A stretch of DNA of 64,000 nt. It comes from a virus. Lineage: Duplodnaviria; Heunggongvirae; Uroviricota; Caudoviricetes. Location of the stretch: IMG/VR virus record IMGVR_UViG_3300031555_004037. One strand, written 5' to 3'. Below the pieces are notes generated by a model, which was not told where the DNA came from, ran no database searches, and was given only the letters and a program-made list of their open reading frames with translations. Below are positions 1,482 through 50,421 of this stretch, piece after piece. The position numbers and the translations under genes were made by a program. Each line of letters starts with the position of its first letter. Positions within the stretch are counted from its first letter, which is position 1.

Positions 1482-1677
1482 TATTATTTTCTCCTTTCTT
1501 ATTTATATAATTAAATAGTGTTTTAGGCAAATATAATATTTATATTGTAGTATTTATTATATTTAATTATATATTTATTATCTAAATAAAGGTAACAATT
1601 TTTTATTTATGTTAAATATATACAAAATAAAATTATATTGATATAATAAGAATAAAAAAATTAAGGGATATTTAATT

Positions 1678-23209: not shown

Positions 23210-23233
23210 TTTTAATTCCCTTGTAATTTTTTG

Positions 23234-23262
23234 TTTACAAGGGAGTTTTTATGTGTTATACT
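23234..23262 (+). promoter_or_regulatory. SigA-type promoter (cca)
   Basis: TTTACA-N17-TATACT, TG extension. Confidence 0.8.
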
Positions 23263-23299
23263 ATCAATAGTTGATAAAGAAATTAAAGGAGTTGATATT

Positions 23300-24640
23300 A
23301 TGAAAAATATAGAAATGGCAAAGAAAATTGCAGAGAGAGTACATAATCACGGTGGACAGACTTATTTTGTTGGTGGATATGTTAGAGATAAAATTCTCGG
23401 AAAGGAAAACAAGGATATAGATATTGAGGTACATAATATTATTCCAAAGGTACTTAAATCTATTCTCTCCGAACTTGGAGAGATTAAGACTCAAGGTGCT
23501 TCTTTTGGTGTATACAATATTAAGGGATATGATATTGATATTGCACAGCCAAGAAGTGAAATAGCAACAGGTAGGGGTCATAAAGACTTTGAAGTATCTG
23601 TTGACCCTTTTATTGGAACTGAAAAGGCATCAATGAGAAGAGATTTCACTATAAACGCACTTATGGAAGATGTTATTACTGGTGAAATAGTAGACCATTT
23701 TAACGGAGTGCAAGATATTGAAAATGGTATTATTAGACATATTAACGATACTACTTTTAAGGAAGACGCTCTTCGTGTTTTTCGTGCAGCACAATTTGCA
23801 GCAAGATTTGGTTTTGATATTGCTGACGAAACTATTGATATTATGTCAACTATGGATGTATCAACACTTTCAAGAGAAAGAGTATATGAAGAAATGAAAA
23901 AGGCAATGATTAAAGCACCTATGCCATCAACTTTCTTTAATGTACTTAAAATGGCTAATCAACTTGATGTATGGTTTCCAGAAGTAAAGGCACTTATTGG
24001 TTGTCCACAAAATCCAAAATATCATCCAGAGGGAGATGTTTGGAATCATACAATGATGGTTATTGATAATGCTGCTACTATGAGAGATAGTGTTTCTAAT
24101 GCAGAGTTTTTTATGATTGCTGCACTTTGTCACGATTTTGGTAAGCCAGTTGCTACTTGTATTACTGAAAAGGGTGTACAGAGTATTAAGCACGATATTA
24201 TGGGTGTACCTATTGCTAAAGAATTTATGGCTAGAATTAACAATAATGTAGACCTTAATAAGTATGTACTTAATATGGTAGAAAATCATATGGCTCTTCA
24301 TCAGTCTTTCAATAATAAGTCTAAAATTAAGTCTACAAATGCTAAATTTGATATTAGTATTTGTCCTAGTGATATGGTAATGCTTACTATTGCTGATTCT
24401 ATGGGTAAAACTAATACTGAAAATGAAGAGGCAGAATGGATTACTGAAAGATTTAATATTTATAAGGAAACTATAAGTAAACCAGAAGTAATGGGTAAAG
24501 ACCTTATGGCTATGGGTATTATGCCTGGTCCAATTTATAGTGAAATTCTTAAAAATACACATAAGCAACATCTTTCAGGTAGAGATAAGGAATCGGTACT
24601 TAAAGATATTGCTACTAGATATGGTAAAAAGGGGGTATAA
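23300..24640 (+). CDS. cca: CCA-adding tRNA nucleotidyltransferase with HD domain
   Basis: VGGYVRD, KDIDIE, RRDFTINAL, EDALRVFRA, HPEGDVWNHT, HDFGK. Confidence 0.92.
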   Translation: MKNIEMAKKIAERVHNHGGQTYFVGGYVRDKILGKENKDIDIEVHNIIPKVLKSILSELGEIKTQGASFGVYNIKGYDIDIAQPRSEIATGRGHKDFEVSVDPFIGTEKASMRRDFTINALMEDVITGEIVDHFNGVQDIENGIIRHINDTTFKEDALRVFRAAQFAARFGFDIADETIDIMSTMDVSTLSRERVYEEMKKAMIKAPMPSTFFNVLKMANQLDVWFPEVKALIGCPQNPKYHPEGDVWNHTMMVIDNAATMRDSVSNAEFFMIAALCHDFGKPVATCITEKGVQSIKHDIMGVPIAKEFMARINNNVDLNKYVLNMVENHMALHQSFNNKSKIKSTNAKFDISICPSDMVMLTIADSMGKTNTENEEAEWITERFNIYKETISKPEVMGKDLMAMGIMPGPIYSEILKNTHKQHLSGRDKESVLKDIATRYGKKGV

Positions 24641-32311: not shown

Positions 32312-33820
32312 ATGTTACCTATTCGATTTTTACCATCAGTTAGTGATAAGATAAAAGATAAAGAATTGGCTGATAAATTAAAAGCAGATAAGAAAAAGAC
32401 TAGATTAAGTAAAAGTAATGTTGTTGATATGATTGAGTTAATTCGTCAAGATGTAGAAAAGTCATTGGGAAAATATGCAGACCAATATCGTTGTATTACT
32501 ACTGTAGAAGAATTACAAGAATATATCAATAAAGCAAATGAACACGGATATATTGCTATTGATACAGAAACAACAGGACTTAATCCTATGGTTGATAAAA
32601 TTGTAGGACTTTGTTTGTATTTTCCTGGTGAAAAGGGTGTATATGTACCTATCAATCATTTAGATTATTTTACAGGTATTAGATTAGATAATCAGTTATC
32701 CGAAGAAGATATTAAACCTATTTTAGAACAGTTGACAGCAAGAATTATTATGCACAATGCACAGTTTGATATTAGAGTTATAAAACATACTATAAAGGTT
32801 AAATTAAAGTGTTGGTGGGATACGCAGATTGCGTCAACTTTATTAGACGAAAATGAATCACATAGACTTAAAGATTTACATAGTAAATATGTGAGTGGGG
32901 AAGAAGAAAAATCATTTAGTGATTTATTTGGTAATACAACATTTACAGATATTCCTATTGAATATGCTTATTTATATGCAGTTCACGATGCAGTTGATAC
33001 TTTTGATTTATTTATGTATCAAAGACCTTTATTAAACAATAAGAGAGAACAAGAAGACGATAGAGATATGTATTGGTTATTTACTAATGTTGAAATGCCT
33101 ATGGTTGATGTTATTGTAGCATTAGAAGATGTTGGTGTTTCTGTAGATGTTGAATATCTTGATACATTAAAAGAGAAATATCATAATAATTTAAAAGTAG
33201 CATTAGATAAATGTTATTCAGAATTAGAATTATATAAAGATAAAATTGATAAGTATAATGCTACTCATTATGAAAAGCCACTTAAAACACCATTAAATAT
33301 TGGTTCTCCGTCACAATTAGCAATTTTATTCTATGATATTCTTAAAGCAAAAGAATTAAAGGGTAAAGGTGCTAGAAGTACCGATGTTGATATGATGAAT
33401 TATTGGAAAGAAAAATATCCTATTGCAAAGGCTATTTTGGAATATAGAGCAGCACAGAAAATTGCATCTACTTATATAGATAATATTTATGATATTATTC
33501 ATACTGACGGTAGAGTACATACACATTTTCATTCTAATGGTGCTAAAACAGGTCGTATGAGTTCTAGTGACCCATTAAATTTACAGAATATTCCGTCACA
33601 TAATGAAGATATTCGTAAAATGTTTGTTGGACAAACTACTTATAGAGATGTAGATAAGCGTGACGATGGTGCTTATATTTTCGATAGACAAGAAGAAATT
33701 GAATTATCAGACGGAACTTGGCAATGGGTTGAATTGATTAAAGTTGGAGATAAATTGTCTAGTGGGGAAATTGTTAAAGCAGTTAAAATTAAAGACTTTA
33801 AAGTATTATTAGGTGTTTAA
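32312..33820 (+). CDS. polA: Split family-A DNA polymerase, N-terminal part (3'-5' exonuclease, thumb)
   Basis: IDTETTGL, MHNAQFD, YAVHDA, NIGSPSQL, TGRMSSSDPLNLQNIP. Confidence 0.92.
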   Translation: MLPIRFLPSVSDKIKDKELADKLKADKKKTRLSKSNVVDMIELIRQDVEKSLGKYADQYRCITTVEELQEYINKANEHGYIAIDTETTGLNPMVDKIVGLCLYFPGEKGVYVPINHLDYFTGIRLDNQLSEEDIKPILEQLTARIIMHNAQFDIRVIKHTIKVKLKCWWDTQIASTLLDENESHRLKDLHSKYVSGEEEKSFSDLFGNTTFTDIPIEYAYLYAVHDAVDTFDLFMYQRPLLNNKREQEDDRDMYWLFTNVEMPMVDVIVALEDVGVSVDVEYLDTLKEKYHNNLKVALDKCYSELELYKDKIDKYNATHYEKPLKTPLNIGSPSQLAILFYDILKAKELKGKGARSTDVDMMNYWKEKYPIAKAILEYRAAQKIASTYIDNIYDIIHTDGRVHTHFHSNGAKTGRMSSSDPLNLQNIPSHNEDIRKMFVGQTTYRDVDKRDDGAYIFDRQEEIELSDGTWQWVELIKVGDKLSSGEIVKAVKIKDFKVLLGV

Positions 33821-33838
33821 ATTTAGGGGGTAATAAAA

Positions 33839-34114
33839 ATGTTTGATAATGATTTAATTAAAACTGATGAACAACCTGATTGGGATGAATATGATATTGA
33901 TTGGAAAGAAATGGATTGGGATAAATATGAAGTAAAATCAAGAAATAAAAATATCAAATTATCCATAATTATTGCTTTAATAATTTGTAATATCTTATTA
34001 CTTTGTCAGTTATTATTTTATGTATCTACACAAAATAACTTAAATTCAGAAAATTATATCATAGATGATACTTATTCTGTAAGTTATATTGAAAAGAATG
34101 TGAAGAATAATTAA
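33839..34114 (+). CDS. Small membrane protein between the polymerase halves
   Basis: DW-rich acidic N-terminus, one TM segment. Confidence 0.6.
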   Translation: MFDNDLIKTDEQPDWDEYDIDWKEMDWDKYEVKSRNKNIKLSIIIALIICNILLLCQLLFYVSTQNNLNSENYIIDDTYSVSYIEKNVKNN

Positions 34115-34128
34115 GAAAGGAGATATAT

Positions 34129-35226
34129 ATGATTAAGGCAAGAACACGAAGAATTATACAAGGTGCTGACTATAGTGCCCAAGAGCCTAGAGTGTTATCA
34201 ATGCTTTGTGGTGACGAGGGTATGTTACAAGCATATAGAGATGGAAAAGATTTATATGTAGAAATTGCTGCTATTGCTATGCACTTAAATTATAATGAAT
34301 GTTTAGAGCATTTTCCAAAGGGAACACCTATTAAAAATGTAGATGGCAAATGGTATTATGCTTTACATAAAGAAACAAATATGGTTGCCCCTAAATGTGA
34401 TTATAGTGATGTAAATGTTGAAGATTATGATTATGATAAATTAGCAGATGGAGAAACTGATACTTTTAAAGACGGAAAAGAGCGTAGAGGACAAGCAAAG
34501 AAAATTCTGCTTGGTATTATGTATGGTCGTGGGGAAAATTCTATTGCAGAACAATTAGGTTGTGATGTAGAAGAGGCAAGAGATATTAAAAATAATGTTT
34601 ATGACGCATTTCCAAAGATTAAGGTATTTGAAAGAGATTCTCAACTTATGGTTAAAAATTTAGGATATGTAACTACTTTATGGGGTAGAAAAAGAAGATT
34701 ACCTAATTATAATTTACCACCATTTACATTCTACTATTTAGACAACTATGGAAATATTAGAAGAGATACCTCTGTACCTAATGATATTAAAGAAAAATTA
34801 ACAAATAAATTAAATACAATGTTTTGGAAATCTCGACTTAATTTTATTGAAGAACTTAAAATTAAAGAAAAGATTTTAGTTATTGATAATGGAAATAAGA
34901 TTGCTGATGCTAGTAGACAGATTATCAATTCAAGAGTACAAGGTAGTTCTGCTGATATGAGTAAATTAGCACTTATTAAAATTCATAATGACGAAGAATT
35001 AAGTAATCGTGGTGTAAGAACAATTATTCCTGTTCACGATGAAATTCTTATTGAAACACCATTAAGATATGCTAGATATGTTAAAAAGAGATTTGCCGAA
35101 GATATGGAAACTGCTGCCAAGCCTAAATTAACTATTCCTGTATGTTGTGATGTTGTTTCAGCAGAAAGATGGTATGGAGAAGAACTTGAATTGAATGAAA
35201 TTTTAAGTGATTTGCCAGAGGTATAA
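34129..35226 (+). CDS. polA: Split family-A DNA polymerase, C-terminal part (motifs A, B, C)
   Basis: ADYSAQEPR, KKILLGIMYG, VQGSSAD, VHDEIL; own AAGGAG SD. Confidence 0.92.
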   Translation: MIKARTRRIIQGADYSAQEPRVLSMLCGDEGMLQAYRDGKDLYVEIAAIAMHLNYNECLEHFPKGTPIKNVDGKWYYALHKETNMVAPKCDYSDVNVEDYDYDKLADGETDTFKDGKERRGQAKKILLGIMYGRGENSIAEQLGCDVEEARDIKNNVYDAFPKIKVFERDSQLMVKNLGYVTTLWGRKRRLPNYNLPPFTFYYLDNYGNIRRDTSVPNDIKEKLTNKLNTMFWKSRLNFIEELKIKEKILVIDNGNKIADASRQIINSRVQGSSADMSKLALIKIHNDEELSNRGVRTIIPVHDEILIETPLRYARYVKKRFAEDMETAAKPKLTIPVCCDVVSAERWYGEELELNEILSDLPEV

Positions 35227-39833: not shown

Positions 39834-39885
39834 GTTTATATAGAATGTGAGAAGATTAAAAGATATACAAAGGGAGGCAATTTAT

Positions 39886-40803
39886 ATGGAAAATACAATG
39901 ATTACAATGGAAGAGTATAATGAAACAGAGTATAAGGCATTTGAAATGTCTTTGTTGAATAATGAATTAGTTGGGTTTAATCATTTTATCAATGAAATTA
40001 AAAAATACCCAATACTTTCATCAGAAGAAACTCGAACATTAGGTTTTCTTGCAAGTTGTGGAGATAAAGATGCTAGAGAAAAGTTAATTCTCCACAATAT
40101 TAGACTTGTTTTATTTATTGCAAACAAATTCAAATGGTCATCTCTTGACTTTGAAGATTTAGTATCTTTGGGCAACCAGGGATTACTCATTGCTATTAAC
40201 AAGTTTGACCCTAACAGAAATGTTTTGTTCCATACATACGCATATTCTTGGATTCATCAAAGTATACAGCGTGGCATTGAAGAAATTGGTGAAACCATTA
40301 GAGTATCTGTTTCTGCCAATAATTTATTGGTTAATATTAAGAAAACAGAGCAGAGATTAAGAGAAGAATTTAGAGAAGAGCCTACAATCGAGCAGATTGC
40401 AGAAGAGTTAAATATTCCTGTGGCAAAGGTTAAGAAAACTCTTTCTTATGATACTAAAATCTTATCGTTATCTATGCCTGTGAATACTGATGATAGTGGT
40501 AATAGCACACTTGGAGATTTCCTTGAAATTGATAACAAGTTGTGTCCAGAAGAAGTAGCCACTAGAAATTCAATGCGTGAGGATATTTTAAATATTTTAC
40601 ATAAAAACTTAACTGATAGAGAGGTAAATATTCTTTGTATGAGGAATGGTTGGGATGACGAAAATCCTATGACATTTGAGGCTATTGGACAAGTTTATAA
40701 TATTACAAAAACCAGAGTAAAAACTATCTATGATGGTGCTTTACAGAAATTGGCTAATTGTAATGACGCATCAAATCTCTATGATATGATGTTAGCATCA
40801 TAA
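39886..40803 (+). CDS. Sigma70-family sigma factor
   Basis: HNIRLV, DLVSLGNQGL..A..KFDP, region 3 and 4 HTH. Confidence 0.9.
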   Translation: MENTMITMEEYNETEYKAFEMSLLNNELVGFNHFINEIKKYPILSSEETRTLGFLASCGDKDAREKLILHNIRLVLFIANKFKWSSLDFEDLVSLGNQGLLIAINKFDPNRNVLFHTYAYSWIHQSIQRGIEEIGETIRVSVSANNLLVNIKKTEQRLREEFREEPTIEQIAEELNIPVAKVKKTLSYDTKILSLSMPVNTDDSGNSTLGDFLEIDNKLCPEEVATRNSMREDILNILHKNLTDREVNILCMRNGWDDENPMTFEAIGQVYNITKTRVKTIYDGALQKLANCNDASNLYDMMLAS

Positions 40804-41316: not shown

Positions 41317-42084
41317 ATGGTAGAAGAACTAAAAGATATTTTTATAAAAGATTTAGATAATTTTAAAGAAAGAAAGTGTAAAGCAAAAGATATTTTCACA
41401 ATAAGAGAAATTCCTAAAAATATTGCTTATGAATTTGTTAGAAAATATCATTATTTAAAAGACGCTAAATTTTTCTGTGTTTATGGTTATGGTCTTTTTT
41501 ATAAGGACGAATTAGTAGGATGTGCTACATATTCTAATCCTCAAGGTGCTGTTGCTTTAAAAGGTTGGTTTGGAGTAGATAATGACTGTCAAACTATTTT
41601 AGAGTTATCAAGATTATGTATGTTACCTATTTTAAATGGTACAAATGCTACAAGTTATCTTTTAGGTAATAGTATGAAAAGATTAAAGGAACATAATATT
41701 CAAGCAGTAATCACACTTGCTGATAGTAATAGACATATAGGTTCAATTTATCAAGTGTGTAATTTTAAGTATTATGGTCTTACAAATAAGAAAACTGATT
41801 TCTGTACTATTGTAAATGGTAAATTAAAGATAAATCCAAGAATGGCAACAAAGGATAAAAAGGGAGTATGGTTGCCTAGAACACAGAAACATAGATATTG
41901 CTATTTGTTGGACAAGTCTTTAAAAATTTTATATGATGAACAACCACATCCAACAGTAAAAGAAACAATAAAATTAGAGTGTTGTGGTGGTACTCATATT
42001 GTTTATGATTATAGATATGATACATATTATACTTGTCCTAGATGTACAGGTAAATTAGAAGAAATAAATATGGAAACAAATTAA
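41317..42084 (+). CDS. Second Mom-like GNAT-fold DNA modification protein with C-terminal Cys motif
   Basis: KYHYL, ELSRL, ITLAD, HIGSIYQVCNFKYYG. Confidence 0.7.
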   Translation: MVEELKDIFIKDLDNFKERKCKAKDIFTIREIPKNIAYEFVRKYHYLKDAKFFCVYGYGLFYKDELVGCATYSNPQGAVALKGWFGVDNDCQTILELSRLCMLPILNGTNATSYLLGNSMKRLKEHNIQAVITLADSNRHIGSIYQVCNFKYYGLTNKKTDFCTIVNGKLKINPRMATKDKKGVWLPRTQKHRYCYLLDKSLKILYDEQPHPTVKETIKLECCGGTHIVYDYRYDTYYTCPRCTGKLEEINMETN

Positions 42085-42101
42085 CTTTATGTTAATTTAT
42101 T

Positions 42102-42175
42102 GTACCCATAGTTCAGTTGGTTAGAACATCTGGCTCATAACCAGACGGTCATAGGTTCGAGTCCTATTGGGTACA
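42102..42175 (+). tRNA. tRNA-CAT (Ile2 or elongator Met)
   Basis: TCTGG-CT CAT AA-CCAGA. Confidence 0.88.
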
Positions 42176-42278
42176 TTCAAGTCTATGTGTTTGAAAAAAC
42201 TAACTAGATTATTTAAACATCAATACGCAACGAAACTGCAAATTTTGATTCCCCACATTGTCTAGGCATAGACTTGAA
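42176..42278 (+). ncRNA. Candidate structured spacer RNA
   Basis: 12-bp perfect closing helix TTCAAGTCTATG/CATAGACTTGAA directly after tRNA. Confidence 0.5.
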
Positions 42279-42311
42279 ATGAAAAAAATTTACAATTTTT
42301 TCAAAAAAGTG

Positions 42312-42340
42312 TTTACAAATTATAAATACTTTGATATAAT
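42312..42340 (+). promoter_or_regulatory. SigA-type promoter
   Basis: TTTACA-N17-TATAAT, TG extension. Confidence 0.8.
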
Positions 42341-42361
42341 AGTTTTTGTTGAGAGAGATAT

Positions 42362-42434
42362 GGTCTGCTGGACGAATGGTTTAAGTTGACACCCTTTCAC
42401 GGTGTAGATACGGGTTCGATTCCCGTGCAGACTA
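42362..42434 (+). tRNA. tRNA-Glu(TTC)
   Basis: ACACC-CT TTC AC-GGTGT. Confidence 0.93.
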
Positions 42435-42465
42435 CTTAAAGTGTATAATAATTAGGAGAAAAGTA

Positions 42466-42678
42466 TTGCGACCAAAACACGAATTAGAGCGAGGAATTAT
42501 TTGTGAAAAATGTCTTAAACATTCATATAAAGGACATTACAAACGAATAAAAACTGAAACTGCGAAGATTGAAAGCACAACAGGAGAATATTATATTATA
42601 CATAGAATGAATTTGTGCAATAAGTGTTTTGAAGAATATACTAATCTAATAAATAAGTTTTTAGATAGTGAAAAATAA
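42466..42678 (+). CDS. Small Zn-finger-like protein
   Basis: CEKC..CNKC, SD. Confidence 0.55.
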   Translation: MRPKHELERGIICEKCLKHSYKGHYKRIKTETAKIESTTGEYYIIHRMNLCNKCFEEYTNLINKFLDSEK

Positions 42679-42682
42679 AGCA

Positions 42683-42695
42683 CTATTTAATTATA
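42683..42695 (+). promoter_or_regulatory. CTATTTAATTATA motif upstream of the giant RNA
   Basis: Exact copy 17 nt before the RNA terminal helix. Confidence 0.6.
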
Positions 42696-42712
42696 TAAGA
42701 AAATACAACTAA

Positions 42713-43432
42713 ATATTGTGTGCCAAATTAAATGTTTAGTGAACCCTAGTGAATGAAGAACTAACCACTCTGCTAGGACAGTAATAAGGCTCAAAAGGTT
42801 GAATAACTCGTTGAAACTCGAATGATAGTTTGAGTGTATGCGAAACTCTTAATATATATTGAAGTTTAAGAGTTGGAGAGCGAATGTTCAAGTTATGTGT
42901 TACTGGTGCTAATCATATTGGTAGGTGTAGTGTGACCTGCTTGTGGGCATCGTAATAGACGCTACCTCGAAAGGGTAGAAGAATCCTGGGAACTCGGTAG
43001 TCTGGTAAACTATTTGAGATAGCAGGAAATACCAAAACAAGATGCTTTGCCTTGATAGTCTAGTGATAGACAGTATAACACAAGCATAAGTCGAAAGGCT
43101 GGATAAGCCAAGTAGCCCAATGGCAATAAAAACATTCTAATTTTGAGTTAATAATTCAAGGAATAAAACAGTCGATAGATATTCTTTACTAACTACATAA
43201 ATTATCTGAATGGTTAGGGTGAAATCTGGGAGTGTCGTTCTCTCACGAGTTTTATAAATACACCAAGTAATAATCCGTGTGTTAAACATCGTGTTTATTC
43301 TATGTATTTTAGCCTAAAAAGCGTGGACTTGCTACCCATTGCTCAGATTTAGGTTCTCGTTAGCATAATAACACCGAGATACGATTAGTAAGTCGAAGGA
43401 CTTCAATAAGCATTTAATTTAGTACACAATAT
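42713..43432 (+). ncRNA. Giant ornate ncRNA (~720 nt), GOLLD/ROOL-class candidate
   Basis: About 25-bp terminal helix, long-range helices, GNRA hairpins, no ORF, in tRNA cluster. Confidence 0.8.
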
Positions 43433-43463
43433 AACGAATTATAAAAGAAAGGGGATAACACTT

Positions 43464-43679
43464 ATGTATAATGATTTTAATATACAGCCAACGATGTGTA
43501 AAATCTGTAAGAGGCAGGCATCCAAAATTGAAGAGTATATTCAGTTAGCCAAAGAATGTGGCTATACAACTGTTGACGAGTGTGTTGAAAACGAAGAAGG
43601 TACATTTAATCCTGATACACGAAAATTTTATTGTACAGAGTGTTATATCAAAATCGGTCAACCTTTGGGAACAGCATAA
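43464..43679 (+). CDS. Small Cys-motif protein
   Basis: CKIC..CTEC, SD. Confidence 0.6.
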   Translation: MYNDFNIQPTMCKICKRQASKIEEYIQLAKECGYTTVDECVENEEGTFNPDTRKFYCTECYIKIGQPLGTA

Positions 43680-43710
43680 GATTTACAAATATATTCTTAT
43701 TAACTATGGA

Positions 43711-43755
43711 AAAGCCTCCTAGATTTTATAATCGTATAAAATTTGGGGGGTTTTT
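43711..43755 (+). terminator. Intrinsic terminator before the tmRNA promoter
   Basis: GCCTCCTAGATTTTATA/TATAAAATTTGGGGGGT + T tract. Confidence 0.75.
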
Positions 43756-43783
43756 ATTTTTCTAAATAATTTAATAAAAATTA

Positions 43784-43812
43784 TTTACAAATTAAAAACA
43801 ATGTGCTATAAT
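43784..43812 (+). promoter_or_regulatory. SigA-type promoter (tmRNA)
   Basis: TTTACA-N17-TATAAT, TG extension. Confidence 0.8.
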
Positions 43813-43837
43813 AATTAAAGTAAAATAAATAAAACTT

Positions 43838-44192
43838 GGGCTTGTCAGGTTTCGACAGGGCAAATGAAGTCAAATAAGGTAGGTAGAGCAGTCGAGTAAC
43901 TCTTAAAACTGTTTCGGTTAAACATAGTCGCAAGACCTTGTATGTGCGCAGCCTAAGCCGATAATTAGGTACTAATATGATATATGATTTGTCTGTTAAT
44001 CAGTTGTATTAGTTCATCATATAACAGAATATCCGAAGATTGCAAGGAGAAATAATATTAAAAACGCAATACATCTTGTTGTGGCTAATATCGTTTAAGG
44101 TGTAAAGAAAAAGAATCAATTAGCAAAAGTGCCTATGAATAACTTGTTTGGTGGAAATGTTTTGGACAGGGGTTCGACTCCCCTCAAGTCCA
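43838..44192 (+). ncRNA. ssrA: tmRNA, tag (A)ARPCMCAA
   Basis: GGGCTTG/CAAGTCC acceptor with G3-U70, T-arm, UAGUC-GCA resume site, tag 43930-43956. Confidence 0.93.
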
Positions 44193-44195
44193 CTA

Positions 44196-44302
44196 AAAAT
44201 CGGTAATTTATATGTACGCAAACATTAATTATCGGTAAATGAACCTAACAAAAGTGGAAACAAAAATGGTTCAAACTTCTAGGGATTCCACCCCTAGATT
44301 TT
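44196..44302 (+). ncRNA. Candidate multi-stem spacer RNA
   Basis: GGTAATT/AATTATC, TGAACC/GGTTCA, TCTAGGG/CCCTAGA helices. Confidence 0.35.
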
Positions 44303-44304
44303 AT

Positions 44305-44390
44305 GGAGTGTTGGCTCAACTGGTAAAGCATCGGTCTTGAAAATCGACATCCGTTAATTCGGTATCTGGGTTCGACTCCCAGGCACTCCG
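44305..44390 (+). tRNA. tRNA-Ser(TGA)
   Basis: TCGGT-CT TGA AA-ATCGA, variable arm, G73. Confidence 0.92.
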
Positions 44391-44392
44391 TT

Positions 44393-44470
44393 ATATGAGT
44401 TATTGTTAATGCACAATATTAAATAAGGTTATCTCACGATTGATATTAAATGGTCAGCCTTAACTCATAT
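44393..44470 (+). ncRNA. Candidate structured spacer RNA
   Basis: 10-bp closing helix ATATGAGTTA/TAACTCATAT. Confidence 0.45.
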
Positions 44471-44474
44471 TTAT

Positions 44475-44547
44475 GCACAGTAGGTGATGCGGTTCGTTGC
44501 ACCTGGCTTATATCCAGCGATTCTGGGTTCGACTCCTAGACTGTGTA
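44475..44547 (+). tRNA. tRNA-Ile(TAT)
   Basis: GCACAGT/ACTGTGT acceptor, CTGG-CT TAT AT-CCAG. Confidence 0.75.
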
Positions 44548-44550
44548 CTA

Positions 44551-44621
44551 GCAATGTAGGGTATAGGCAATCTTGTAGTATAACTGTTGCCTATTACAGA
44601 CTATAAGATTCCTTACATTGT
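44551..44621 (+). ncRNA. Pseudoknotted hairpin upstream of smpB
   Basis: Two 11-bp helices plus TAGGC bulge pairing with loop GCCTA. Confidence 0.55.
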
Positions 44622-44650
44622 TGTGAATTTATATTTGGAGGATTTCTAAA

Positions 44651-45100
44651 ATGAAGAAAAATATAACTATTGAAAATAGAAAAGCAAAATATGATTACTT
44701 TATTGAAGAAACCCTTGAATGTGGTATAGAATTAATAGGTAATGAAGTAAAGTCTATCAAAAATGGTAATTGTTCAATAGTGGACGCTTATTGTAAAGTT
44801 GTAAATAGACAGTTATATATCTATAATATGTTTATTAAAAGATATGAAACAACAAATAAATTTGATACTCTTGAAGAAAATAGAGATAGAAAATTACTTG
44901 CACACAAAAAAGAAATTATTAAATTAGATAATACTACTAATTTAGACGGAATGACTTTAATTCCACTTAAAATCTATGATAATGGTAGTAAAATTAAAGT
45001 TTTAGTTGGTGTTTGTAAAGGAAAACATACTTATGATAAGAGAAATTCCTTAAAAGAAAAACAATTAAAACGAGAAATTGATAGAAATATGAAAGGATAA
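44651..45100 (+). CDS. smpB: SsrA-binding protein
   Basis: NRKAKYDYF, GIELIGNEVKS, GKHTYDKR. Confidence 0.95.
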   Translation: MKKNITIENRKAKYDYFIEETLECGIELIGNEVKSIKNGNCSIVDAYCKVVNRQLYIYNMFIKRYETTNKFDTLEENRDRKLLAHKKEIIKLDNTTNLDGMTLIPLKIYDNGSKIKVLVGVCKGKHTYDKRNSLKEKQLKREIDRNMKG

Positions 45101-45143
45101 GTATTAGAAAATTTTGAATTTATTCAAATTGATTAATTTTTTG

Positions 45144-45172
45144 TTTACAAACTGATTTAACTATGATATACT
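45144..45172 (+). promoter_or_regulatory. SigA-type promoter
   Basis: TTTACA-N17-TATACT, TG extension. Confidence 0.8.
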
Positions 45173-45201
45173 AATTATAATGAAAATTATATTTAAGTTA
45201 T

Positions 45202-45273: not shown

Positions 45274-45347
45274 TGCGGGATGACGAGTAATGGATGCTCA
45301 CCAGGCTCATAACCTGGGATATGTGGGTTCGATTCCCACTCCCGCTA
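45274..45347 (+). tRNA. tRNA-fMet-like (CAT)
   Basis: Unpaired 1-72, GCGGGA/TCCCGC acceptor. Confidence 0.85.
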
Positions 45348-45376
45348 CTAAAAATTTTATAATTGGAGGTAATACT

Positions 45377-46222
45377 TTGAAATCAAAAAAAGAGTTTAAG
45401 AGTTTTTTCAAAACAGTTGGTGGAAATGAGGGTAATAAATGTCATTATCCTACAAGATTAGACACTTATGGTTGTGGTTGCAGTCACGATTGTTCATACT
45501 GTTATGCAAAATCACTTCTTGATTTTAGACATTTATGGAATCCAGAAGACCCTGCTATTGCTGATATTGAAAAAATTCGTAAAAAAATTTCCAAATTACC
45601 AAAAGATATGGTAGTTCGTTTAGGTGGAATGACAGATTGTTTTCAACCTATTGAAAAAACACATCGAGTTACATACGAAACCATTAAGGCATTGAATGAA
45701 AATGGTATTTCTTATTTAATTGTAACCAAGAGTGCTATTATTGCAGACGAAGAATATCTTGAAATTTTGGATAAGGATTTGGCACATATTCAGATTACAG
45801 TTACAACAACTGATGACGAATTATCAAAAACTTATGAAAAGGCAAGTGTTCCTAGTGAGCGTATTAAGGCTATTGAAAAACTTCAAGAAATGGGATTTGA
45901 TGTTACTTTAAGATTATCTCCATTTATTCCAGAATATGTAGACCTTTCCATTATAAATAATGTAAAGTGCGATAAGATTTTGGTAGAGTTTTTAAGAGTT
46001 AATACTTGGATTCAGAAATGGTTTAATATTGATTATTCTGATTATACAGTAAAGCAGAGTGGTTATAGACATTTACCATTAGAAAAGAAAAAGGAATACA
46101 TATCTAAAATTACAGGATATAAAGAAATGACGGTTTGTGAAGACGAAAGTGACGCTTATGAATATTGGAAAGAACACTTTAATCATAATCCTAATGATTG
46201 TTGTAATTTAAGAAAAGTATAA
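45377..46222 (+). CDS. Radical SAM protein (spore photoproduct lyase-like)
   Basis: CSHDCSYC, VRLGGMTD; TTG start after GGAGGT (the ORF-track start lies in a tRNA). Confidence 0.8.
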   Translation: MKSKKEFKSFFKTVGGNEGNKCHYPTRLDTYGCGCSHDCSYCYAKSLLDFRHLWNPEDPAIADIEKIRKKISKLPKDMVVRLGGMTDCFQPIEKTHRVTYETIKALNENGISYLIVTKSAIIADEEYLEILDKDLAHIQITVTTTDDELSKTYEKASVPSERIKAIEKLQEMGFDVTLRLSPFIPEYVDLSIINNVKCDKILVEFLRVNTWIQKWFNIDYSDYTVKQSGYRHLPLEKKKEYISKITGYKEMTVCEDESDAYEYWKEHFNHNPNDCCNLRKV

Positions 46223-49598: not shown

Positions 49599-50354
49599 AT
49601 GGAACAATCAAAAGAAATTGAGGCATTTAGTTGGGAATTTTTCAAAATTATATTTGACTATATTATGACTGATGACGAAATGTTAATTGTCCGTATTTTA
49701 TTGATTATTTTAGTTGGTGTATTAGTATATGCAACTATTAGAAATACTAGATATGCTATTGCATTTATAAAAAATATTATTAAGATTAATAAACCTATTG
49801 ATAAAACCGTTAAGAAAAATAAAATTATTCTTAAACTTTCTAATGGTAAAGTTTATAAAGATTTAGATAAAGATAGTCAAAAACAATTATTACAACAAGG
49901 TTTATTATTAACACTACCTATATCAACAGGTTTGATAATTGTATTATTATTTTTTCCACTTATTATGAAAGATTTAATTATGGGAATTGATATAATACAG
50001 TCAGTTATAAATTTTATTGGACTTATTGGTATGACAGTTTTAATATATGTATTTTGTAATCATTATCAAGATTGGTTTTTACATCAACTAATTACAAATA
50101 AATGTAAAATATCTATTGAAACTGTAACTTATATTAAAGAAGATTATTCTAAAGATTTATATATAAAAGTAAAAAATAGATATTATAAAAAAGCATACAT
50201 ACAATATATTGATACTGAAAATAATAGCAGTATTCCTACATTATATAGGTCTGTTGATAAAGAATTATTAGTAGGTTCAAAAGTATTTATTATTGAGTTG
50301 GTAAATGGAAAAAAGTATGCTTTAACATACAAACAACAAGCACCTATCGCCTAG
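49599..50354 (+). CDS. Membrane protein
   Basis: Three TM segments; start moved to SD-preceded ATG; 3' end overlaps tRNA. Confidence 0.65.
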   Translation: MEQSKEIEAFSWEFFKIIFDYIMTDDEMLIVRILLIILVGVLVYATIRNTRYAIAFIKNIIKINKPIDKTVKKNKIILKLSNGKVYKDLDKDSQKQLLQQGLLLTLPISTGLIIVLLFFPLIMKDLIMGIDIIQSVINFIGLIGMTVLIYVFCNHYQDWFLHQLITNKCKISIETVTYIKEDYSKDLYIKVKNRYYKKAYIQYIDTENNSSIPTLYRSVDKELLVGSKVFIIELVNGKKYALTYKQQAPIA

Positions 50355-50421
50355 TGGTATGGCACACGACTTTTAATCGTGCGAGTTATTCTCATCGTAG
50401 GTTCGAGTCCTACTAGGTGCA
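50340..50421 (+). tRNA. Atypical tRNA: TTT anticodon on a long-variable-arm body
   Basis: CACGA-CT TTT AA-TCGTG; 15-nt variable region GAG/CTC; A73. Confidence 0.8.

Follow-up and report, generated by a model that had tools for sequence, protein, structure and literature searches.

What kind of RNA is encoded around positions 42713-43432 of the 64,000-nt phage sequence analysed here (the window)? The earlier note on this DNA had described a non-coding RNA of about 720 nt and proposed that it was either a divergent member of the GOLLD or ROOL families or a new class. We find that the RNA is very probably a divergent, long-form subtype of ROOL RNA carried by a jumbo phage, and not a new class. 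It extends from 42716 to 43429 (714 nt, including both strands of the closing helix P1) on the plus strand, which also carries the flanking features from ORF70 to SmpB. The assignment draws on a match to the Rfam ROOL family (RF03087), on covariation with relatives and on RNA contigs.

A full-length match to ROOL

Scanning of the whole window with cmscan against Rfam 15 identified ROOL (RF03087) at 42721-43421 of the plus strand, with 197.6 bits (gathering threshold, 99.1) and an E-value of 5e-43. The score is thus twice the gathering value, and the match spans positions 1 to 574 of the 574-position model without truncation. The GOLLD, OLE, RNase P and group I models gave no match at gathering in the whole window, nor even at E up to 10 in a permissive scan of 42600-43550. 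Besides ROOL, the latter scan lists two sub-threshold snoRNA noise matches and nothing else. In the cmscan alignment, the ROOL core words AAUAGACGC, GGAAAU.CCAA, UUUGCCUUGA, GUAUAACACAAG, AGUAGCCC, UCUGAAUG, GGGUGAAA and CUCAGA are all kept at high posterior probability; they are identical in L119, the relative used below for comparison, apart from single covarying positions.

The view that this is a class unrelated to ROOL, or else a GOLLD, OLE, RNase P or group I RNA, could appeal to the scant likeness in primary sequence to 115 IMG/VR viral loci carrying the ROOL core motif. No BLAST alignment with these loci is better than E 0.015 (the best is 50 nt long), and it is mostly the core motif that aligns. 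However, the full-length covariance-model match, together with the absence of any further family at E 10 or better save the two snoRNA noise matches, leaves this view next to no chance of being correct. Hence, of the options offered in the earlier note, the divergent ROOL stands, GOLLD is discarded and the new class falls because of the strong Rfam match. The word "divergent" is apt: the score is about half of the 358 bits reached by a canonical ROOL (that of genome G001, see below), the insertions amount to about 127 nt and the BLAST similarity is as poor as just described. GOLLD is also a large ornate RNA of phages found near tRNA genes and forms an RNA-only nanocage, a 14-mer (PMC12286853), but its sequence and fold are unrelated to those of the RNA studied here.

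Compensatory changes across the ROOL fold

Because the 115 IMG/VR loci were too dissimilar for covariation to be assessed within the subtype, relatives were reached via the downstream gene, ORF71. Seven relatives from ruminant assemblies carry five full-length and two partial ROOLs (115-198 bits), all of them directly upstream of an ORF71 homologue. Four of the full-length copies are approximately 95% identical to the window copy, and L119 is 80% identical.

The Rfam alignment was converted to 27 helices in window coordinates, with three slips of register by one base put right, and scored on a MAFFT alignment against L119. Of the 168 modelled pairs, 162 are canonical in the window and 164 in L119. 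Comparison of the two RNAs revealed 18 double-compensatory changes, 12 one-sided changes with pairing retained, 4 repaired mismatches and a single break. When the 3' partners were shifted by 1-3 columns, the number of canonical pairs fell to about 60-68 and 0-1 compensatory changes were counted; with random partners, canonical pairs changed on both sides averaged 2.1, with a maximum of 7. The 18 compensatory changes are distributed over 13 helices, including P1, P3a, both long-range helices, the pseudoknot at 42938-42945/43079-43086, five core hairpins, P17 and P19. The plus-strand minimum free energy lies at z = -3.97 relative to dinucleotide shuffles, and P1 is present in the corresponding structure. 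By either measure, the z-score or the count of 18 compensatory pairs against 0-1 in the shifted alignments, the structure is far beyond chance. The comparison shows that the whole secondary structure predicted by the ROOL model, long-range helices and pseudoknot included, has been kept by compensatory evolution. Sequence identity to L119 ranges from 87 to 91% in the core, and falls to 55% in the linker and 44% in a 51-nt segment, both described below.

Every string quoted in the earlier note was found where it had been placed, and the claim that the RNA holds no ORF was borne out, the longest one being 51 aa on the minus strand. The proposed 25-bp pairing of the two ends (42713-42737/43408-43432) comprises 22 Watson-Crick pairs, 2 G-U pairs and 1 mismatch. 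It is real as P1, but its outer 3 bp break in L119; with the extent defined by the relatives, P1 spans 42716-42742/43403-43429 and has 27 bp, with 2 mismatches and 2 G-U pairs. Of these, 11 bp exceed the Rfam model; relative to L119, this portion shows two compensatory and two one-sided changes as well as one repaired mismatch. The hairpin formed by AACTCTTAA and TTAAGAGTT (42844-42852/42866-42874) aligns to ROOL P3b (42844-42874), with a perfect 9-bp stem and an enlarged 13-nt loop, UAUAUAUUGAAGU, where the consensus loop is GUGA. In L119 the stem is invariant and the loop identical at 12 of 13 positions. The long-range pairing TGCTAATC/GATTAGTA, which occurs once in the region, belongs to a long-range ROOL helix of 13 bp (42907-42919/43378-43390) that shows 1 compensatory change, 2 one-sided changes, 1 repair and no breaks. 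The pseudoknot UGCUUGUG/CACAAGCA (42938-42945/43079-43086), marked by square brackets in the Rfam consensus, forms eight perfect pairs, one of which (42943/43081) has undergone a compensatory change from G-C to A-U.

Both GNRA hairpins named in the earlier note are also genuine. The one at 43058-43071 (GUGA) is conserved and contains two compensatory pairs, 43058/43071 and 43062/43067, which are seen in all relatives and, as linked variants, in RNA and DNA sequencing runs. The second (43089-43100) is an extra hairpin specific to the subtype; it has 4 bp and sits within 16 nt that the Rfam model lacks (an insertion state in the cmscan alignment). Its loop is GAAA here and GUGA in L119 and L120, so that the GNRA character is kept. 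The pair TCTGA/TCAGA, present once in the region, turned out to be the ROOL consensus UCUGA/UCAGA (within the words UCUGAAUG and CUCAGA): UCUGA lies at the flank of the linker (43205-43209) and is complementary to UCAGA at 43343-43347, in the internal loop of P17/P18. Both strands are invariant in the relatives, on which covariation is silent. The P17/P18 arm (43311-43355) shows three compensatory changes in P17 and ends in the L18 loop, which keeps a central GC and in L119 is the 6-nt palindrome UAGCUA. Hairpin P19 (AGUC-GAAG-GACU; 43391-43402) adjoins the 3' strand of P1 and has a compensatory change from C-G to U-A at 43394/43399. One proposed helix was rejected: CTCGGT/ACCGAG also occurs once in the region but suffers three breaks relative to L119, and its strands belong to a local CUCG/UGAG hairpin and to the covarying pairing GGUGU/ACACC.

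Complementarity between the L3b loop and the 3' junction

The earlier note had further proposed a pseudoknot between the loop of P3b and the 3' part of the molecule. The complementarity exists: ATTGAAGT (at 42858) can pair with ACTTCAAT (at 43400), and the full match covers 9 nt (42857-42865/43400-43408). The comparison with L119, however, offers no compensatory change and one break (42859, T to C), and in the RNA of runs X8 and X12 a change of A to G at 42858 leaves only a wobble pair. In random sequences, this one loop would find a complement of at least 8 nt in 12% of cases and of at least 9 nt in 2.4%.

The pairing might still be real, either as a conformer competing with P19 and the inner part of P1, or as a subtype-specific bridge between molecules. 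Nine contiguous Watson-Crick pairs have a probability of about 0.024 when this loop alone is considered, and the loop is conserved at 12 of 13 positions in a relative with 80% overall identity. Moreover, P3b of the env-120 ROOL packs against P1 and P2, which it contacts via non-canonical pairs (PMC12286853); this makes it plausible that the two regions are neighbours. Set against this are the substitutions just described and the overlap of the target with the inner part of P1 and with P19, whose own pairing is marked by a compensatory change. One match of this kind is unsurprising in a molecule with about 15 loops; similarly, self-complementary 8-mer pairs number 8, compared with 5.6 +/- 3.3 in random sequence. 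We therefore regard this pairing as doubtful, and give it a low probability in either form.

Departures from the ROOL consensus

Relative to the 574-position model, the RNA has about 127 extra nucleotides, found in five segments: a 16-nt insertion before P3a, the 13-nt L3b loop in place of the consensus tetraloop, the 16-nt insertion after the pseudoknot strand, a linker longer by 37 nt, and 51 nt where the model has 7. The A/U-rich linker (43121-43204) is hypervariable. It corresponds in the alignment to the disordered linker in the interior of the ROOL cage, suffers insertions and deletions even among relatives with 95% identity, and is where variants cluster in the DNA sequencing run X16. 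Its 55% identity to L119 fits the published description of this linker as having little or no conservation (PMC12286853). The 51-nt segment (43257-43307) is the second variable stretch, and its equivalent in L119 carries an 8-nt deletion. A further departure concerns the GGGAG/CUCUC hairpin at 43228-43244, whose loop differs from the 9-nt consensus loop in both length and sequence.

Set beside the ROOLs of RF03087, the RNA thus has the same helices, pseudoknot and conserved words, the same hypervariable internal linker, and the same kind of setting, namely a phage genome, a tRNA island and a ruminant habitat; the covariance model is matched over its full length. RNA contigs were obtained from it and not from the flanking ORFs. 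It differs by a P1 of 27 rather than 16 bp, by the L3b loop of 13 nt instead of GUGA, by the extra GNRA hairpin after the pseudoknot strand, by the insertion before P3a and by the variable 51-nt segment. A further difference from the solved ROOLs is the genome that carries it, that of a jumbo phage whose own tmRNA and SmpB genes follow directly after the RNA. A pattern search of IMG/VR for ROOL cores with the extra hairpin found none. The single match to the pattern in JGI metagenomes (L128) was dismissed as chance, as it has neither an Rfam match nor BLAST similarity.

Position upstream of the tmRNA and smpB genes

The gene order at the locus is tRNA-Glu (ending at 42435, 281 nt upstream of P1), ORF70, ROOL, ORF71, a terminator-like hairpin, tmRNA and SmpB. 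ORF70 (42466-42678) encodes a 70-aa Cys-rich protein, also present in L124 and L125, and ORF71 (43464-43679) a 71-aa CxxC protein; the two are not paralogues. ORF71 begins 35 nt past P1 and is possibly co-transcribed with ROOL. The phage tmRNA (43838-44195) scores 101.5 bits and has a short predicted tag, ARPCMCAA. SmpB (44651-45100) was identified by Pfam PF01668 (E 1.2e-50) and by a PHROG match. Altogether, 33 tRNA genes and the tmRNA gene are found between 38.6 and 59.3 kb (38670-59304), covering nearly all amino acids.

This arrangement is conserved among the relatives reached via ORF71. tmRNA lies downstream in all five full-length loci, as does SmpB in the four loci long enough to reach it. 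By its relationships the window belongs to a jumbo phage, one of the 300-kb class, since a near-identical ORF71 occurs in one relative on an ENA contig of 317,515 bp and relatives of SmpB are found on IMG/VR contigs of 250 kb and 163 kb. ROOL adjoins SmpB in neither of these two IMG/VR jumbo contigs. One of them (G001, locus L118; IMGVR_UViG_3300045988_184922), a 250-kb jumbo provirus with a tmRNA and a SmpB 59% identical to that of the window, has a canonical ROOL near a tRNA. This ROOL (G001:C1:13651-14220, minus strand) is 570 nt long, is near consensus and scores 358 bits, but it is separated from the SmpB/tmRNA locus by more than 120 kb, whereas the window copy adjoins that locus. ROOL and tmRNA/SmpB thus recur together in jumbo phages, as in G001, whereas their adjacency does not. 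DNA searches with the RNA and with 12 kb around it against 50,697 GenBank phages gave no match, and a pattern drawn from the window itself had no match in IMG/VR.

Presence of the RNA in gut metatranscriptomes

Three metatranscriptome runs from two studies (X4, X8 and X12) and a sheep-gut DNA run (X16) were compared over 41800-45200. The data are assembled Logan contigs rather than raw reads and serve as a weak hint only; RNA ends, strand and level cannot be read from them. Depths and contig ends are unreliable in such assemblies, which the P1 inverted repeat could itself break, so expression was not ranked by depth and no contig end was taken as an RNA end. All three RNA runs yielded contigs lying wholly inside ROOL: 638 nt in X4 (42739-43375), 667 nt in X8 (42746-43412) and 619 nt in X12 (42758-43376). 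Depth was zero in each of them over 42484-42711 (ORF70) and 43510-43737 (ORF71). In the DNA run, ORF70 is covered, continuously into ROOL, and the same two flanks are partly covered. Cover is confined to ROOL in the RNA runs and includes ORF70 in the DNA run, which argues that the signal represents RNA rather than contaminating DNA, and that ROOL far outlasts the neighbouring mRNAs. The gut metatranscriptomes thus contain ROOL as RNA, with the protein genes on either side undetected. The k-mers of the RNA are found in 20 runs (13 studies), most of which carry the labels bovine, sheep, gut or faeces; these labels fit the term "rumen-originating" in the ROOL name.

The earlier note had placed a motif promoter just upstream of the RNA. 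The motif, CTATTTAATTATATAA (42683-42698), is real; it occupies the 37-nt gap between the stop codon of ORF70 and P1, and is conserved upstream of ROOL in L119 (two copies), L123 and L126. Allowing at most two mismatches, the window contains eight copies, at 1503-1518(-), 1559-1574(+), 13227, 21800(-), 29930, 40808, 42683 and 62793, against 1.9 expected, and none of 100 shuffles reaches eight. The outward-facing pair at 1503(-) and 1559(+) sits in a divergent intergenic region. This recurrent intergenic motif is probably a phage promoter. No sigma-70-type promoter was found directly upstream of ROOL and no terminator directly downstream of P1, the next one being a hairpin followed by a T-run, resembling an intrinsic terminator, after ORF71 (43710-43755). 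Because no terminator follows P1, the 3' end of ROOL is probably generated by processing or differential stability. Transcription would start from the motif at 42683-42698, and the RNA would build up as a discrete, stable species of about 715 nt closed by the 27-bp P1.

Could the structure instead be a 5' leader or cis-acting regulator of ORF71 rather than a free-standing RNA? The short distance to ORF71, the placement of the terminator after this gene and not before it, and the conservation of the ROOL-ORF71 adjacency in the relatives are all in line with such a role. Against it, the RNA contigs of the three runs cover ROOL and not ORF71, more distant homologues of ORF71 (L121 and L122) have no ROOL upstream, and ROOLs elsewhere are not accompanied by a conserved downstream gene (PMC12286853, which identified no protein binding partners). 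On this evidence the leader interpretation appears very improbable. The same two homologues, each 57% identical, led us to reject the idea that the ORF71 product is a dedicated partner of ROOL.

Predicted assembly into a cage

Two cryo-EM studies have described ROOL RNAs as protein-free, homo-octameric hollow cages about 28 nm across (PMC12286853, and Ling et al. as outlined in PMC12515178). The former solved the env-120 ROOL (659 nt, from cow rumen) as an RNA-only octameric cage of D4 symmetry with a disordered internal linker (PMC12286853); the latter solved the ROOLs of E. faecalis and Firmicutes CAG:227, according to the summary in PMC12515178. The cages are joined by kissing loops and A-minor contacts and are stable at nanomolar concentration (PMC12286853; PMC12515178). 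According to PMC12515178, the cage tolerates 3' fusions and deletion of the disordered internal loops, and assembly depends on a strand-swap rearrangement which mutations can disable; a buffer with 240 mM K+ and 20 mM Mg2+ is reported there to promote the octamer.

By analogy with these structures, the RNA studied here most likely forms a ROOL-type, RNA-only homo-octameric nanocage, and we hold this with good, if not full, confidence. The analogy is drawn because the whole core is kept and the two largest insertions fall in poorly conserved stretches; with a score half the canonical one and about 127 nt of insertions, the octamer is an extrapolation for this subtype. As in the three ROOLs solved by cryo-EM, self-assembly into the hollow octamer would take place without protein, the hypervariable linker (43121-43204) would lie inside the cage and the extended P1 would probably project outward. 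In env-120, L18 forms a symmetric kissing contact between chains (PMC12286853). The self-complementary centre of L18 in this RNA (the central GC, and the palindrome in L119) hints at a similar contact, but is suggestive only.

The insertions could also have led a ROOL-derived RNA away from the octamer, so that it would exist as a monomer, in another stoichiometry or as a particle with bound protein. Besides the insertions and the half-maximal score, the unusual loop of the 43228-43244 hairpin speaks for such an outcome, as does the mutation-sensitive strand-swap rearrangement that assembly needs (PMC12515178). Yet all core helices and conserved words are kept, the two largest of the five extra segments are in the linker and in the second poorly conserved stretch, the cage withstands the alterations mentioned above (PMC12515178), and L18 preserves its self-complementary centre. 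We consider a non-octameric form unlikely and favour the octameric cage.

A possible link to translation

ROOL genes occur in phages and prophages, in many cases close to tRNA islands (PMC12286853; PMC12515178), and the published suggestions for the RNA are that it encapsulates tRNAs, ribosomes or other cargo. The placement of the RNA upstream of tmRNA and SmpB, in a tRNA island, is compatible with a role linked to translation; it fits the published idea that the cages relate to tRNAs or ribosomes, without testing it. It is speculation that, during infection, the octameric cage might serve as an RNA container or scaffold tied to a translation-support module made up of the tRNAs, tmRNA-SmpB and the CCA-adding enzyme. 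A stronger version, in which ROOL would, in this jumbo-phage lineage, be a fixed part of a translation-takeover cassette (tRNA island, ROOL, the CxxC protein, tmRNA and SmpB), with the 27-bp P1, the 13-nt L3b loop and its complementarity to the 3' junction, and the extra GNRA hairpin as adaptations of the cage, seems to us quite improbable. These additions would then let the cage hold or present tRNAs, tmRNA-SmpB or ribosomal subunits, and a first functional handle on ROOL would be gained if this were true. Our search of the literature found no report joining ROOL RNA, tmRNA and phage.

Few natural RNAs are known to assemble into a cage without protein, and ROOL is one of them. Knowledge of the family itself is unchanged by the present copy; what it contributes is a divergent and longer natural variant with a fold backed by 18 compensatory changes, evidence that this RNA exists in ruminant gut communities, and a conserved position, in a 300-kb-class phage, with a tmRNA/SmpB pair directly downstream. 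Its natural insertions also reveal where the scaffold can accept extra sequence, a help to those who engineer ROOL cages.

Other features of the locus and its surroundings

All large ORFs from position 1984 onward are on the plus strand, and the G+C content of the window is 27%. PHROG matches identify a sigma factor (39847-40803), a Mom-like protein, a clamp-like protein, a CCA-adding enzyme and a family-A DNA polymerase (PolA) among the products encoded. The CCA-adding enzyme combines a PolyA_pol head with an HD domain, and the polymerase appears to be split, one 502-aa ORF containing its exonuclease domain together with the N-terminal portion of the polymerase domain (the two enzymes occupy 23231-24640 and 32312-35226). 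The tmRNA gene is closely preceded by a strong sigma-70-like promoter (43784-43812), with 11 of 12 matches and an extended -10 TG. In the tRNA island, tRNA-Lys(UUU) (50340-50421) is 82 nt long, and tRNA-Ile(UAU) (44475-44548) is barely above the Rfam threshold, with 31.2 bits. A radical-SAM ORF (45290-46222), recognised by a Pfam match and with a best PHROG family that carries no assigned function, overlaps a predicted tRNA-Met (45274-45348); its true start is probably further downstream.

Two of the relatives differ upstream of ROOL. L125, which is 95% identical, carries an IS605 OrfB/TnpB (Cas12f-like) gene (L125:3-1118) about 200 nt upstream of the tRNA-ORF70-ROOL block, where the other relatives have different genes. 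In L126, a called gene of 71 aa (L126:965-1180) takes the position of the 70-aa ORF70, suggesting that the upstream neighbour of ROOL may be replaceable.
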